Part shown: in pieces, positions 7,072 through 41,350 of the stretch
Numbering within the stretch: position 1 is the first letter of the stretch
Layout: each line of letters opens with the position of its first letter
Notes under the pieces: generated by a model
Seen by the model: the letters and a program-made list of their open reading frames with translations, nothing else
Databases searched by the model: none
What the model was told of the DNA's origin: nothing
Made by a program: the position numbers and the translations under genes
NCBI GenBank assembly: GCA_037130335.1
Contig: JBAXTD010000002.1
Span: forward strand, 1-49,090
Length of the DNA stretch: 49,090 nt
Direction of reading: 5' to 3'
Source of the DNA: a bacterium
GTDB taxonomy: Bacteria; Patescibacteriota; Minisyncoccia; Phycocordibacterales; UBA9973

Positions 7072-7090
7072 ATAATGATATAATCGTTTT

Positions 7091-11509: not shown

Positions 11510-11552
11510 AAAATGCCCCGCGTTTCGGTAAAACCGAAACGCGGGGCATTTT
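11510..11552. terminator. Perfect 20-bp inverted repeat, intrinsic terminator
   Basis: AAAATGCCCCGCGTTTCGGT-AAA-ACCGAAACGCGGGGCATTTT. Confidence 0.85.
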
Positions 11553-11559
11553 GCTTGTT

Positions 11560-11616
11560 TTGACATATTGCTCACAATCCTGTACTATATAAATACAAGC
11601 CCCGCAAGGGCTTTTT
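11560..11616 (+). promoter_or_regulatory. Sigma70-type promoter followed at once by a terminator-like hairpin
   Basis: TTGACA (11560-65), 17 nt, TACTAT (11583-88); then AAGCCC-CGCAA-GGGCTT-TTT (11597-11616). Confidence 0.6.
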
Positions 11617-11644
11617 AATTAGGATTTTTAAGTATAATAATACT

Positions 11645-11827
11645 ATGAGCATTACTACATATCTCAAAGAAACACGTGCAGAATTTAAACATGTTACTTG
11701 GCCTACACGAAAGCAAGCAATTATGTATTCAGTCGCAGTTATTGTTATTTCGCTTTTTATCGCATACTTTTTGGGTGCATTTGATCGTGTTTTTCAATTC
11801 GGACTCGGCAAACTTTTGGGCTTTTAA
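11645..11827 (+). CDS. secE: Preprotein translocase subunit SecE
   Basis: YLKETRAEFKHVTWPTRK plus a single TM helix; sits directly before nusG. Confidence 0.95.
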   Translation: MSITTYLKETRAEFKHVTWPTRKQAIMYSVAVIVISLFIAYFLGAFDRVFQFGLGKLLGF

Positions 11828-11859
11828 TTATCTTTCAAATTTTATTAATTAATTATTTA

Positions 11860-11886
11860 GTTGCCTTCGCGTAATGCGTTGGTGAC
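11860..11886 (+). promoter_or_regulatory. 27-nt hairpin motif upstream of nusG, shared with the recA leader
   Basis: GTTGCCTTCGCGTAATGCGTTGGTGAC, 22/27 identical to the minus-strand 38704-38730 copy. Confidence 0.7.
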
Positions 11887-11898
11887 CGAAAAAATAAT

Positions 11899-12447
11899 AT
11901 GGCAAAACAAGAAATTACATCAGATCGCAGTTGGTACGCGATTCACACATATGCTGGATACGAAAACGCGGTTGCTCGTAACTTGAAACAACGTATTGAA
12001 AGTCTCGGAATGCAAGACAAGATTTTTAATGTGGTTGTCCCAATGGAAAAGAAAATCAAAATCAAAGCAGGGAAGCGCGTAGAGCAAGAAGAAAAAGTAT
12101 ATCCAGGGTACGTACTCGTAGACATGATTGTAACTGATGATTCATGGTACGTTGTGCGCAACACTCCTCGCGTAACTGGATTCGTCGGTGCTGGAGTCAA
12201 TCCCGTCCCGCTTGACCAAAAAGAAGTTGCCGCACTCTTTAAAACAATGGGCGATACACAAACTGCAAAGCATTCAATTAACATTTCAGTTGGTGATCTC
12301 GTTATCATTGCTGACGGACCATTCAAAGAACTTGAAGGAAAGGTTTCAGATGTCGACCAAGACCGCGGAAAAGTTCGCGTACTTGTCTCAATGTTTGGCC
12401 GCGAAACTCCAGTTGAACTCGATTTCTTGCAGGTTAAAAAGATGTAA
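11899..12447 (+). CDS. nusG: Transcription termination/antitermination factor NusG
   Basis: WYAIHTYAGYE, YPGYVLVDM, VRNTPRVTGFVG, KOW domain with GPF...MFGRETPVELDF. Confidence 0.98.
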   Translation: MAKQEITSDRSWYAIHTYAGYENAVARNLKQRIESLGMQDKIFNVVVPMEKKIKIKAGKRVEQEEKVYPGYVLVDMIVTDDSWYVVRNTPRVTGFVGAGVNPVPLDQKEVAALFKTMGDTQTAKHSINISVGDLVIIADGPFKELEGKVSDVDQDRGKVRVLVSMFGRETPVELDFLQVKKM

Positions 12448-12452
12448 TTTAT

Positions 12453-12659
12453 ATGCAAAAAAAAATTGTAGCTTGGGGTTTGCTTGCATGTGTCGTGTTT
12501 GATATCGCAAAAGTCGTTTTCTTTCCAAAAGTATGGATAATAACAACGATACCACTAAATAATGCGTGGAGATCAATACATCTAATGTTTGGTCTTCTAA
12601 TCGATTTTTTTGTTATTTATGCAATAGTCTTGCTTTTCAAAAAAGACAAGAAGGATTGA
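12453..12659 (+). CDS. Small hypothetical membrane protein (68 aa)
   Basis: Two hydrophobic segments; ATG 5 nt after the nusG stop; fills the nusG-rplK gap. Confidence 0.55.
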   Translation: MQKKIVAWGLLACVVFDIAKVVFFPKVWIITTIPLNNAWRSIHLMFGLLIDFFVIYAIVLLFKKDKKD

Positions 12660-33991: not shown

Positions 33992-34783
33992 ATGGAACCG
34001 AAATATTTTGATATTCACTCCCATGTTCAGTTTGATGCATATGATACAGATCGCAATGACGTGATTGCTCGTGCACATGATGCTGGTGTTCATATGATGA
34101 ATGTCGGTACACAAAAAGATACATCAATTATGGCAGTTGAATTAGCAGAAAAATACCACAGCGAGGGCGACGGCGGCGTGTACGCCGCCGTCGCCCAGCA
34201 TCCTACCTGTATCGAAGAAACTTTCGACCCAGAATTTTATGAATCTCTCGCGCGCAAAGACGTGGTCAAAGCCATCGGTGAATGCGGGCTCGATTATTTC
34301 CGCCTGGAAGAGGGTACTATCGAATTACAAAAAAAGATTTTTGTACAGCATATCGAGCTCGCCAACAAAGTGAACAAGCCACTCATGCTCCATATTCGAA
34401 ATGGTGAAGGTAATGCGAATGCGTACCAAGATACGATCGATATTTTGAAACAGTACGCTCGAGTCAAAGGTGATGTACATTTTTTTGCTGGAGACTGGGG
34501 GATTGCACAACAATTTTTGGAATTAGGATTTACACTTTCGTTTACCGGAGTGCTTACGTTTACCAAAGACTATGACGAAGTCGTACGCAACATTCCGCTT
34601 GATATGATTATGTCGGAAACTGATTGTCCGTACATCACACCCACACCTTTTCGTGGTAAACGTAACGAACCAATGCACGTACGCGAAGTCGTAAAGGCAA
34701 TCGCCCGAATCAAAGATGAAGACGAAGAAAAAGTCCGCGCGCAATTGGTTGCTACAGCCAAAAGAGTTTTTAAATTTAAATAA
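33992..34783 (+). CDS. tatD: TatD-family hydrolase
   Basis: DIHSH, IGECGLDY, KPLMLHIR, GDVHFF, MSETDCPY; metG-tatD adjacency. Confidence 0.94.
   Translation: MEPKYFDIHSHVQFDAYDTDRNDVIARAHDAGVHMMNVGTQKDTSIMAVELAEKYHSEGDGGVYAAVAQHPTCIEETFDPEFYESLARKDVVKAIGECGLDYFRLEEGTIELQKKIFVQHIELANKVNKPLMLHIRNGEGNANAYQDTIDILKQYARVKGDVHFFAGDWGIAQQFLELGFTLSFTGVLTFTKDYDEVVRNIPLDMIMSETDCPYITPTPFRGKRNEPMHVREVVKAIARIKDEDEEKVRAQLVATAKRVFKFK
34165..34196. repeat. Perfect GC-rich palindrome inside tatD
   Basis: GGGCGACGGCGGCGT-GT-ACGCCGCCGTCGCCC (15-bp arms). Confidence 0.9.
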
Positions 34784-35459: not shown

Positions 35460-35604
35460 TTGCCCAATTTAATCATTTGTGTTAGTATCAAAGCGTCTTG
35501 TTCGATAGGGTACTGAAACCCTATTGCATGGTCCGAGATAAGACAAAAGGCTGTTTTGGCCTTATTTATAAGCATTTTGGTGGCATTCTGCCACAAATTA
35601 TTAC
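35460..35604 (+). promoter_or_regulatory. rpsF promoter and ~110-nt structured leader (candidate S6:S18 autoregulatory RNA)
   Basis: TTGCCC (35460-65), 17 nt, TAGTAT (35483-88) with TG. Helices GTCTTGT/ATAAGAC, ATAGGG/CCCTAT, AAGGC/GCCTT and GTGGCA/TGCCAC. Confidence 0.65.
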
Positions 35605-36120: not shown

Positions 36121-36182
36121 TTGATTTGTATCAATTACTAATAATAATTCCTACTGCACTATGGTAGGAGAAGTAAAAAAAT

Positions 36183-37617: not shown

Positions 37618-38694
37618 TTATTCTCCTGCACTTGAAACTTGGATTTCGTTGAAGCGGCCGCGAATTTCTTTTTCGATTTCTTTTTCAATTTTTGGGTTGT
37701 CTTTGAGGAACGTGCGAGTTGCATCATATCCGCGACCCATCTTTATTTCCTCAGTTGCACCATCCTTGCCACCTTTGATTGGTTGGAGGTAGGTGTATGA
37801 ACCGCCAGAAGATTTCGAAACGATCTTTATTTTTTCACCGAGCGCCATGAGTTCACCTTCGTATGAAATTCCTTCGCCGTAAATGATGTCGAATTCAGTT
37901 TGTTTAAATGGTGATGCAACTTTGTTTTTTACAACTTTGACACGTGTGCGACCTCCGACCACGTCTTCACCTTTTTTGATTTGAGCGATACGGCGAATGT
38001 CGAGACGAATACTTGTGTAGAATTTGAGAGCCTTTCCACCTGGAGTTGTTTCGGGGTTACCAAACATGACACCAATTTGCATGCGGATTTGGTTGATAAA
38101 AATCACGACGGTGTTTGATTTGGAAACGATCGCAGTGAGTTTGCGAAGTGCCTGAGACATGAGACGTGCCTGTTTACCCACGTGTTGTTGACCCATATCA
38201 CCTTCGATTTCGTCTTTTGGAGTTAGTGCTGCAACTGAGTCGATGACAACGACTGCTATCTTGCCACTACGTACGAGTGATTCACAAATTTCGAGGCCTT
38301 GTTCTCCTGTGTCTGGTTGTGAAATGAGAAGTTCATTGATGTTTACACCCAAATTTTTGGCATAGACTGGATCCATTGCATGTTCGGCATCGATATATGC
38401 GCATACTCCGCCTTTCTTTTGTGCTTGCGCGACGATATGAAGCGCGAGTGTTGTTTTACCAGATGATTCTGGTCCAAAAATTTCAATAATACGTCCACGA
38501 GGAACTCCACCTACGCCGAGTGCCATGTCGAGTCCCATCGAACCTGTCGGAATGACATCGATATCAACTTTTGGAGCATCACCTAGTTTCATGATTGCAC
38601 CTTCTCCAAATTTTGTTTGGATGGATTTAATAGTATCGAGAATGTCTGCACCCATTTCTTTCTTTTCTTTTGGAGCTTTTTTTGTGAATGCCAT
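37618..38694 (-). CDS. recA: Recombinase A
   Basis: [56 protein letters not shown]; no intein. Confidence 0.99.
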
Positions 38695-38703
38695 ATATTT
38701 TTT

Positions 38704-38730
38704 GTCGCCGACGCATTATGCAAAGGCGAC
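38704..38730 (-). promoter_or_regulatory. 27-nt hairpin motif upstream of recA, shared with the nusG leader
   Basis: Minus strand GTCGCCTTTGCATAATGCGTCGGCGAC, 9 nt before the recA ATG. Confidence 0.7.
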
Positions 38731-38733
38731 TGA

Positions 38734-39096
38734 CTAATTACTTTTAATAAAGTTTACCTTATAAATTTGTGATGTTGTCCTGTTGAATTTATCCTTTGCT
38801 GATATGTCTATTATATTGTATCCCTCAAGTAGTGCAATCGTGTCATTCCAGTGGCCATCTTCTTCGACTGATACGATACGACCGTTGATTGTGATTGATA
38901 TTGCGTGATATGCGGTTCCTGATAAATTCAAAACTGAAGTGCGGACTGTTTCGTTGTTTTGTATTCCAGAAACCGACATGTGAATTCCAAACAATAAATC
39001 TCTACCTCGCCATGTACCATATCCAATGATGATAATAAAAAGCAATGTAAGGCTTGCCACACTCAGTAATTTTTTTCCGGTAATGCCTTTAATCAT
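38734..39096 (-). CDS. Hypothetical membrane-anchored protein with an Ig-like domain
   Basis: N-terminal TM segment, then LSGTA...ITINGR.V...GHWNDTIALLEGYNIIDISAKDKF. Confidence 0.75.
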   Translation of the reverse strand: MIKGITGKKLLSVASLTLLFIIIIGYGTWRGRDLLFGIHMSVSGIQNNETVRTSVLNLSGTAYHAISITINGRIVSVEEDGHWNDTIALLEGYNIIDISAKDKFNRTTSQIYKVNFIKSN

Positions 39097-39100
39097 GGAA

Positions 39101-41350
39101 TTATTGTTGTGGTGGTGTTGGATTAATGTCGTCCATCATACCGTCACCTGGTTTTATAAGTACATCGCGTGGTTTGGCACCTGAGCCGGGGCCGATTACT
39201 CCACGTTCTTCGAGTATGTCGATGAGTCGTGCGGCACGAGCATATCCCACACCGAGTTTACGTTGAAGGTACGATGTCGATGCTTTGCCGGCTTCGATTA
39301 CAGTTGTGCGTGCGTCTTCATATAATTCATCGTCGTTGTCTGTATCACCTTCGAGTGATGATTCGAATATTGTTTTGCCGGCACTTACTGTACCTGTGAG
39401 TGCGATTTCGTCAGCACCAGAACTTTCATTGTTATCGGCGATGAATTTTACAACTGACTTAACTTCGTTTTCGGAAATAAATGCACTTTGTAAACGTTCT
39501 GGTTGAGGCATATCTCCACCCAAAAAGAGCATATCTCCAGCACCGAGAAGTTTTTCGGCGCCTGCTTGATCGAGAATAGTGCGTGAGTCAATTTGTGATG
39601 CAACTTGTAGGGCGAGACGTGATGGCACGTTTGCTTTGATAAGTCCTGTAATGACGTTGACACTTGGGCGTTGTGTTGAGAGTACGAGGTGGATTCCAAC
39701 TGCACGAGACATTTGAGCGAGACGGACGATTGCAGATTCGAGTTCTCGTGGATATGCCTGCATGATATCGGCAAGTTCATCGATAATAATGACAATATAT
39801 GGCATTGGATCCATTGCGTCTTCGCCTTCAGAACCTTTTTTGGCTGTGGCGAGGACGTTTTTGTGATAACTTTCGATATCACGAACTGATTCTTTTTCGA
39901 GAATGTTGTATCTACGATCCATTTCTTTGGCTGCCCATTTGAGTGAAAGGATTGCTTTCTTTGCGTCGGTAATAACTGGCGTGAGAAGGTGAGGAATCTT
40001 GTTATATAGTGTAAGTTCGACACGCTTTGGATCGATCATAATAAATCGAAGTGCTTCTGGTCCGTTGCGATACAACAAACTTGTAATGATTGCGTGAATT
40101 GTAACTGATTTTCCAGAACCTGTTGCTCCGGCCACAAGCATGTGTGGCATTTTTGCGAGATTTCCAATATGACCCATACCATTAATTGCACGACCGAGTG
40201 CTACGGTGAGAGGTTTTTCAGATTTTGCGAATCGTTCTTCGGAAAGGAGAGATGCAAGTCCGACAATTGATTTTGCTTTGTTTGGAATTTCGATTCCAAC
40301 CAAAGATTTACCAGGAATTGGTGCTTCGATACGAATTGGGTGAGCGGCGAGTGCGAGTGAGAGATCGTTTTGGAGTCCGAGAATTCGTGAAAGTTTGACG
40401 CCTTCGGCTGGTTTGAATGCGTATCGTGTGACTGTCGGTCCGATTGTGACTTCATCCATTTCAACTTCGATTCCAAAGTTTGAAAGTGAACGTTTGATGA
40501 TGTTTGCGTTTGCTTTTACGTCTCCGACATTTGGTTTACCTTTATCGCTTGCAAGCAAATCAAGTGGGGGAGCAATATACGATGAATGTTTGCGAACAAT
40601 CTTTTTTGCAATTTTTTCTACGTCCAAAATTTCATCTTCTTCGATTGGTTCAGGTTCTTCTGGTTGAATTGCGGCGAGTGCTTTGTCTGGAATTTCTGCT
40701 TCGTTTTCTTGTTTGATATCGGCACCAGAAATTGTGTATGCTTTATTTTTCTTTCGGTTTTCTAAATATGCATTAATAGCTGATTCAAATTTTTTGTAGA
40801 TTGCATTAAAGAGTGTGAGTGTTGGTCGTGTATCAAAAAGCATGATGAGCGAAATGATGAGTATTGCTCCGAGAAATAGTGTCGCACCGACACCTGCAAA
40901 AAGTGTGAGAAAAATCCATGATGATGCAAATCCAACCAATCCTCCGGAATGATATGGAGTACTTGCGACATCAATTAATCCGAGCGATCCGATTACAAGT
41001 AATGCGTACGCGATGCCTTCGATTAGTGCAATGTTTGGTCGAATTCCTTTCATGAATCTAATTCCAAAAATTGCAAAAATAAGTGGAATGAGTACGTACC
41101 CAACTCCAAAAAGTTTAATAAATAAATCGTGTGTAAATCCGCCCGCTGGTCCACCTCCACCAAATCCAGCGATCACAAAAAAAATCGCAAAGGCAAAAAG
41201 TACGACACCCAAAACAGTGTGTCGAGTTTCTTCTTTTAATTTATTTTTGTTTGAAATTTCCTTTTTTCTTGGGGAAGTTTTACGCTCAGATTTTTTGGTT
41301 TCTTCAATCTCTTCGGGTTCATCTTTTTCAATATTTTTGCTCGTTGCCAT
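39101..41350 (-). CDS. ftsK: DNA translocase FtsK/SpoIIIE
   Basis: 4-TM N domain, RIEAPIPGK..VGIEIPN, PHMLVAGATGSGKS, DPKRVEL, DELAD, RLAQMSRAVGIHL, gamma domain SYLQRKLGVGYARAARLID. Confidence 0.98.
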   Translation of the reverse strand: MATSKNIEKDEPEEIEETKKSERKTSPRKKEISNKNKLKEETRHTVLGVVLFAFAIFFVIAGFGGGGPAGGFTHDLFIKLFGVGYVLIPLIFAIFGIRFMKGIRPNIALIEGIAYALLVIGSLGLIDVASTPYHSGGLVGFASSWIFLTLFAGVGATLFLGAILIISLIMLFDTRPTLTLFNAIYKKFESAINAYLENRKKNKAYTISGADIKQENEAEIPDKALAAIQPEEPEPIEEDEILDVEKIAKKIVRKHSSYIAPPLDLLASDKGKPNVGDVKANANIIKRSLSNFGIEVEMDEVTIGPTVTRYAFKPAEGVKLSRILGLQNDLSLALAAHPIRIEAPIPGKSLVGIEIPNKAKSIVGLASLLSEERFAKSEKPLTVALGRAINGMGHIGNLAKMPHMLVAGATGSGKSVTIHAIITSLLYRNGPEALRFIMIDPKRVELTLYNKIPHLLTPVITDAKKAILSLKWAAKEMDRRYNILEKESVRDIESYHKNVLATAKKGSEGEDAMDPMPYIVIIIDELADIMQAYPRELESAIVRLAQMSRAVGIHLVLSTQRPSVNVITGLIKANVPSRLALQVASQIDSRTILDQAGAEKLLGAGDMLFLGGDMPQPERLQSAFISENEVKSVVKFIADNNESSGADEIALTGTVSAGKTIFESSLEGDTDNDDELYEDARTTVIEAGKASTSYLQRKLGVGYARAARLIDILEERGVIGPGSGAKPRDVLIKPGDGMMDDINPTPPQQ

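Follow-up and report, generated by a model that had tools for sequence, protein, structure and literature searches.

A young, duplicated spacer element, probably an mRNA stem-loop, upstream of nusG and recA in a species of Patescibacteria

In a tiny, uncultured lake bacterium of the Patescibacteria (Paceibacteria/Nomurabacteria-like), the spacers upstream of nusG and of recA carry the same 27-nt hairpin. It belongs to a familiar kind of spacer element, the small palindromic intergenic repeat or intercistronic stem-loop, and its duplication is young and goes no deeper than the species. It is probably an mRNA stem-loop. The reading that we tentatively prefer, at somewhat less than an even chance, is that of a young copied spacer cassette whose stem-loop has been kept at the RNA level, where it would act on mRNA stability or processing between cistrons. 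The analysis covers a 49,090-nt stretch of DNA, here called the window, with a G+C content of 37-41%. The source runs of the sequence are lake and freshwater metagenomes, and the relatives found through NusG and RecA are metagenome-assembled genomes labelled Nomurabacteria, Paceibacterota, Parcubacteria or Patescibacteria.

Sequence and fold of the two copies

The hairpin stands upstream of both genes at the coordinates and with the sequences that the preliminary description had reported (Table 1). The two copies agree at 22 of their 27 positions; both are intergenic and oriented alike relative to the downstream gene, and they lie 26.8 kb apart in opposite orientation, each of them solitary. 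None of 100 dinucleotide shuffles of the window gave a match to the degenerate hairpin pattern, a covariance model built from both copies scored them at 40-41 bits (E ~1e-7), and their likeness is far beyond chance. They have in common a predicted fold of 6 bp, a 2x2 pyrimidine internal loop, a further 3-4 bp and a loop centred on UAA, with folding energies of -11.2 kcal/mol (z = -3.6) for the nusG copy and -12.3 kcal/mol (z = -3.3) for the recA copy. In both, the inner stem with its loop follows the consensus GCRTAATGCG.

The earlier claim that the differences preserve pairing proved correct. All five are transitions. In four of them only one partner of a base pair has changed, Watson-Crick and G-U pairs being exchanged such that a standard pair is kept, and the fifth falls in the internal loop. 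As was also claimed, pairing is preserved on the coding strand only: the nusG copy has three G-U pairs on that strand, and because they turn into A-C its complement folds weakly (-4.7 kcal/mol). The half-sites of the nusG copy are unequal, RNA pairing being kept and DNA symmetry not, whereas the recA copy has a perfect outer palindrome and folds equally well on both strands. We estimate that under neutrality all four transitions would preserve pairing on a given strand about 1 time in 16, which is suggestive evidence for a stem kept on the coding strand; a C-to-T bias in an AT-rich genome could have contributed. No compensatory (double) change separates the copies, and with two sequences only and no such change there is no statistical covariation.

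A GC-rich hairpin just 3' of secE and of the 120-aa ORF that precedes recA could be taken for an intrinsic terminator or attenuator after these genes. We consider this highly improbable. Neither hairpin has a U tract after the stem on either strand, an A run standing there instead, and the promoter and terminator scans called no consensus promoter and no terminator at either of them. The genuine terminators of the window, in contrast, have perfect stems of 10-20 bp with T tracts, and no promoter from which transcription could restart lies between the hairpin and the ATG. A search of Rfam over the window returned tRNA-His alone at the gathering score, and nothing at either hairpin even at permissive E-values.

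Gene context and gene starts

Matches in Pfam confirm SecE, NusG, L11, RecA, FtsK and EF-P at the two loci. The placement of both hairpins inside operons is plausible, since the genes are co-directional and no consensus promoter or terminator was found at either hairpin; secE is the probable first cistron of a secE-nusG transcript. The distance from the upstream stop codon to the hairpin is 32 nt at the nusG locus and 3 nt at the recA locus, where the 120-aa ORF takes its final codons and its stop from the AT-rich arm.

Table 1. Features of the window discussed in the text (positions in nt; in each sequence cell, the strand indicated).
Feature	Position	Strand	Sequence	Remarks
TATAAT-type boxes (examples)	1290-1308, 7072-7090, 11626-11644		
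TATAAT-type box (example)	39351-39365	-		
Tandem terminator-like hairpins	11510-11552 and 11597-11613	+		With T tracts; between a SIMPL-family gene and the leaderless secE promoter
secE	11645..11827	+		Own leaderless-type promoter, TATAAT 6 nt 5' of ATG
AT-rich left arm of copy 1	11837..11859	+	AAATTTTATTAATTAATTATTTA	In register with the copy 2 arm (TAATTA-N4-hairpin)
Hairpin copy 1	11860-11886	+	GTTGCCTTCGCGTAATGCGTTGGTGAC	12 nt 5' of the nusG ATG
A-rich spacer before nusG	11887..11898	+	CGAAAAAATAAT	Common to the closest relative, L100 (CGAAAAATCAT-ATG)
nusG	11899..12447	+		Pfam match
68-aa ORF in the nusG-rplK gap	12453-12659	+		No Pfam match
Palindrome inside tatD	34161-34203	+	GGGCGACGGCGGCGT GT ACGCCGCCGTCGCCC	GC-rich, perfect
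rpsF hairpin	35580-35594	+	GTGGCATTCTGCCAC	Ends 10 nt 5' of ATG, then an A-rich stretch
ssb hairpin	36149-36169	+	TCCTACTGCACTATGGTAGGA	Ends 13 nt 5' of ATG, then an A-rich stretch
recA	37618..38694	-		Pfam match
A-rich spacer before recA	38695..38703	-	AAAAAATAT	L089 has GACGACAAAACTAT-ATG
Hairpin copy 2	38704-38730	-	GTCGCCTTTGCATAATGCGTCGGCGAC	9 nt 5' of the recA ATG; 3 nt past the end of the 120-aa ORF
AT-rich left arm of copy 2	38731..38755	-	AAACTTTATTAAAAGTAATTAGTCA	Homology to relatives ends where the arm starts
Glucodextran_B-like membrane ORF	38734..39096	-		120 aa, between ftsK and recA; Pfam match

Past the hairpin, the two loci resemble each other on the 5' side by AAAYTTTATT(AA)AAKTAATTAKTYA in the same register (TAATTA-N4-stem), and on the 3' side by an A run and ATGGCA. 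The 5' match is by itself marginal in an AT-rich setting (p ~0.01-0.05) and the 3' match could equally come from features common to start sites. With a flank similarity of only marginal significance, neither the length of the cassette nor the direction in which it was copied is certain. The A-rich spacers and the start codons described at both genes were borne out by the sequence. The spacer of nusG is ancestral, since it is common to the closest relative, and that of recA is likewise ancestral, L089 having GACGACAAAACTAT-ATG.

Inspection of the gene starts found no Shine-Dalgarno (SD) sequence before any gene of the window. About 14 of the 46 genes have instead a TATAAT-type box ending 6-8 nt upstream of the ATG, often with TG before the box, which indicates leaderless mRNAs. 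Among these genes are secE and ftsK, each of which heads one of the two gene strings concerned here. Four genes, nusG, recA, rpsF and ssb, have no leaderless box and carry a compact hairpin ending 9-13 nt upstream of the ATG and followed by an A-rich stretch. The hairpins of rpsF and ssb repeat the architecture seen at nusG and recA with an unrelated sequence, and neither matched an Rfam family at the gathering score; the one before rpsF could be a minimal S6:S18-type leader. We rejected the GGTGAC that ends the nusG copy as an SD-like sequence: it lies 12 nt from the ATG, reads GGCGAC at recA, and the genes of the window use no SD sequence.

Three other features of these regions were recorded. 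Tandem terminator-like hairpins precede the secE promoter. The short ORF in the nusG-rplK gap is also called in assemblies of the same species (L001 and L003), and a relative (L102) has no gene there. The arms of the palindrome inside tatD contain GGCGAC and GTCGCC, the outer-stem hexamers of the recA hairpin in swapped order, which is probably a coincidence.

Comparison with relatives

Upstream of nusG, the hairpin is absent from more than 160 related loci, namely all 80 of the GTDB relatives (NusG 74-90% identical), all 80 JGI loci and the closest NusG relatives (L100-L104; the closest proteins of a 5.8-billion-protein set are P0121 at 93%, P0122 at 92% and P0124 at 91%). The closest NusG relative (L100, 93% identical) has at this spot a different hairpin of 31 nt (GTGTCGCGTTTCAATCGACGTTACGCGACAT; L100:61-91; -13.7 kcal/mol), placed 16 nt upstream of the nusG ATG and followed by a CGAAAAAT.AT spacer as in the window. 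Upstream of recA, the hairpin is absent from the three closest lineages, whose RecA is 96-97% identical and each of which is represented by several samples; their recA spacers are AT-rich and 18-30 nt long.

A further conserved hairpin stands before nusG in a subgroup of Paceibacteria (L009:2956-2987, L050:2950-2992, L071 and L066). It is bipartite, GGGTGRCGAT..TTT..AGTCGYT.CACTCC, followed by TAAGAAAA, and between L009 and L050 both sides of one inner-stem pair have changed (GGCGA/GTCGC in the former, GACGA/GTCGT in the latter). This is a candidate nusG leader motif, and it has no match in Rfam. The hairpins of the window show no significant sequence homology to those of L100, L009 or L050, or to local terminators.

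The preliminary description had proposed that the hairpin links nusG and recA in a regulon and had named its absence from close relatives as the observation that would speak against this; the absence was found at both loci, and these comparisons thus give no support to a conserved nusG/recA regulon. A conserved operator is ruled out in the same way, the relatives being without the hairpin. A trans-acting factor could still couple the two genes, either as an RNA-binding protein on the UAA-loop hairpin or as a dimeric DNA repressor, for instance SOS-like, on GTCGCC-N15-GGCGAC. The equal position and orientation before two start codons, the conserved GCRTAATGCG and the recA copy, with its perfect outer palindrome and equal folding on both strands, fit such a site. 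Also, recA is a classic target of LexA-type repressors, and a palindrome near its start is what LexA/SOS boxes look like. Against it, all the relatives examined have conserved the genes with their neighbours and yet have no hairpin at either locus, nusG does not belong to the SOS genes, and the unequal half-sites of the nusG copy keep RNA pairing and not DNA symmetry. The hairpin also differs from LexA/SOS boxes in lying 3' of any plausible promoter position, and no S24 peptidase or LexA-like gene is among the Pfam calls in ~67 kb of the contig. In addition, a passage of PMC7739468, which cites Sanchez-Osuna 2017, gives the LexA motif of Patescibacteria as a direct repeat, not a palindrome. 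On balance we regard a site for a trans-acting factor as unlikely.

The recA locus records how the hairpin arrived. In protein and DNA alignments with the three closest lineages (L089, L093 and L097), homology stops exactly at the AT-rich arm, ...GTAAAC|TTTATT..., which is also where the similarity to the nusG arm starts, and it resumes at GCGACAAAA..ATATGGCA, up to the ATG. The break gives independent support to the 5' flank match between the two loci. Between the breakpoints, the relatives have ~105 nt, made up of the low-complexity tail of an ORF (25-30 aa) and a spacer, whereas the host has ~45-50 nt consisting of the AT-rich arm and most of the hairpin. The Glucodextran_B-like ORF is accordingly 120 aa long in the host and 143-149 aa in the three lineages, the tail lost in the replacement being rich in Pro, Thr and Ser. 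Neither copy is flanked by a direct (target-site) duplication; the event at recA was a replacement and not a clean insertion.

The copies face opposite ways and bracket a segment that has nusG and recA at its two inner edges, so that they might also be read as inverted recombination sites around an invertible or mobile segment of 26.8 kb (11860-38730). The gene order across both boundaries (secE-nusG-rplK and ftsK-ORF-recA-efp) is, however, the same in the hairpin-less relatives, which argues that the pair does not mark the ends of such a segment. The segment is full of essential housekeeping genes with no recombinase gene adjacent, and no contig joins in the runs point to an inverted form; the chance that we give to this reading is close to negligible.

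Copy number and state within the species

In ~67 kb of the host's own contig, made up of the window and the adjoining 18 kb of an 85.6-kb ENA contig, no copy other than these two was found by fuzzy search, by a structural descriptor or by the covariance model. The wider search that the preliminary description had suggested brought no further copy, either in three sequence collections or in ~1.5 Mb of related DNA. The degenerate pattern GYYGCCYYYGCRTAATGCRYYGGYRRC had no match in GTDB representative genomes, JGI metagenomes or IMG/VR, a result that rules out near-identical copies only, since an exact pattern detects diverged ones poorly. The covariance model gave nothing credible beyond the known pair in 665 kb (the own contig, 80 GTDB nusG loci and the recA loci of the closest lineages), and nothing credible in 906 kb of JGI nusG loci. 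Its best outside matches scored 15-21 bits with E from 0.05 to 9, which is chance level, and the two that were inspected lie in long ORFs. In one run, contigs matched to short stretches (56-61 nt) led to the known locus only, such short probes being unreliable. A repeat of a TIGR-Tas system or of a CRISPR or tandem array was dismissed because there is no array, the two copies being solitary.

Contigs from three samples agree in every letter of the nusG copy, and those of three runs in every letter of the recA copy; the element appears to be fixed within the species. The Logan contigs of lake runs that contain the organism at low depth (X2-X4) break on either side of the nusG hairpin (~11800-11930), and those of run X3, whose flanking contigs carry SNPs, break also on either side of the recA hairpin (~38666-38762). 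No alternative allele at the hairpins is visible in the Logan contigs of X2-X4, which break there; the breaks could reflect strain polymorphism at the element or merely low coverage. Two metatranscriptome runs of a sample that contains the organism yielded no transcripts of it.

The two copies could also be a sample of a larger family of selfish or neutral small palindromic repeats, REP-like or MITE-like, surviving in tolerant AT-rich spacers with no role in the expression of nusG or recA. Such a repeat would owe its spread to a Y1/HUH transposase acting on a single-stranded DNA hairpin, or would have been made by template switching. REP elements are repetitive extragenic palindromes with RAYT transposases, present in tens to hundreds of copies per genome, often in both orientations or paired, and headed by a 5' GTAG-type tetranucleotide; the REP of malE-malF is an mRNA stabiliser. 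Like them, the element is an imperfect palindrome of 20-40 nt (27 nt here) with an internal mismatch loop, extragenic, placed between operon genes and restricted to one lineage, and it is likened to them also in that REPs can act on mRNA stability. The strand-specific tolerance of G-T would fit recognition as single-stranded DNA as well, the crude replacement at recA truncated the neighbouring ORF, tatD holds another GC-rich palindrome, and relatives have unrelated hairpins in the same spacer. On the other side, only two copies were seen in ~67 kb, in the same orientation and at nearly equal distances from the start codon, with no BIME-like pairing. The copies begin TTTA-GTTGCC and GTCA-GTCGCC and so have no GTAG-type head, no transposase or RAYT domain is among the Pfam calls of the same DNA, and the element has no match in the GTDB, JGI and IMG/VR collections or in relatives. 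The flanks of both copies, with no target-site duplication, also differ from those of a MITE, which has such a duplication along with terminal inverted repeats. We regard a REP-like palindrome as doubtful in itself and as nearly as likely as the stability or processing reading.

Rickettsia palindromic elements, small palindromic insertions of ~100-150 nt in reduced genomes, offer another comparison. Here too a GC-richer palindrome sits in an AT-rich, reduced genome, and an adjacent ORF was given a new end when it arrived; in contrast to them, it is 27 nt long, does not lie in frame inside a protein, and has no copy family on record.

Discussion

The stability or processing reading that we tentatively prefer would begin with a cassette of ~50 nt, an AT-rich arm of ~22 nt followed by the 27-nt imperfect stem-loop, limited to one species-level lineage and present in at least two diverged copies. 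Of the two copies, the one between secE and nusG is probably older, given that a hairpin, though with another sequence, occupies the equivalent position in the sister lineage; we read the site as one that tolerates a hairpin or has a use for one. The recA copy would most likely be an ectopic copy, with the nusG cassette or an unseen third copy as its source, and the copying event would have replaced ~105 nt at recA, that is, the 3' tail of the upstream ORF and the old spacer. Since then the stem would have been maintained on the mRNA-sense strand only.

In the polycistronic mRNA, the stem-loop would form a processing or stability boundary between cistrons. Cleavage in the AU-rich arm may leave it near a new 5' end, where it would then protect the nusG and recA messages, and the A-rich stretch of 9-12 nt would stay single-stranded as a landing site for ribosomes that use no SD sequence. 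In this arrangement a leaderless gene would stand at the head of each string, with the hairpin in its second or third cistron. It is less likely that the stem-loop shields the upstream message from 3' exonucleases; in both cases the landing site for ribosomes would remain open.

Intercistronic and 5'-proximal stem-loops are known to set differential mRNA stability in operons, as do the E. coli ompA 5' hairpin, the cggR-gapA site of B. subtilis, where processing leaves a stabilised downstream message, and the puf hairpins of Rhodobacter. In sequence and predicted fold the element resembles these systems in being a compact, stable hairpin between co-directional genes, strand-specific and with no U tract, with an AU-rich stretch on its 5' side and a free ribosome-binding stretch on its 3' side. 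It differs from them in being common to two unrelated operons, only species-deep, and found in a host without SD sequences.

A broader version of this proposal is that the AU-rich arm, the stem-loop, an A-rich pad of 9-13 nt and the AUG form a portable start module for the genes of SD-less Patescibacteria that are not leaderless, copied between operons, for example from nusG to recA. The stem-loop would there be a substitute for a ribosome-binding signal or a 5' end, or else a docking site for a shared RNA-binding factor that co-tunes genes of transcription elongation and recombination. The unrelated hairpins before rpsF and ssb in the window, and before nusG in other clades of Paceibacteria, are parallels for such a module. 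We judge it quite unlikely.

What the element means for the organism depends on which of the leading readings applies. If it is a neutral palindromic repeat, it would be an ordinary by-product of genome evolution, of value as a strain marker and as an illustration that such insertions can trim neighbouring ORFs. If the stem-loop kept on the mRNA is functional, it would illustrate the transfer of a regulatory spacer between core operons by copying, and it would give a rare view of gene expression inside operons in ultra-small CPR bacteria that lack SD sequences and have mostly leaderless mRNAs.
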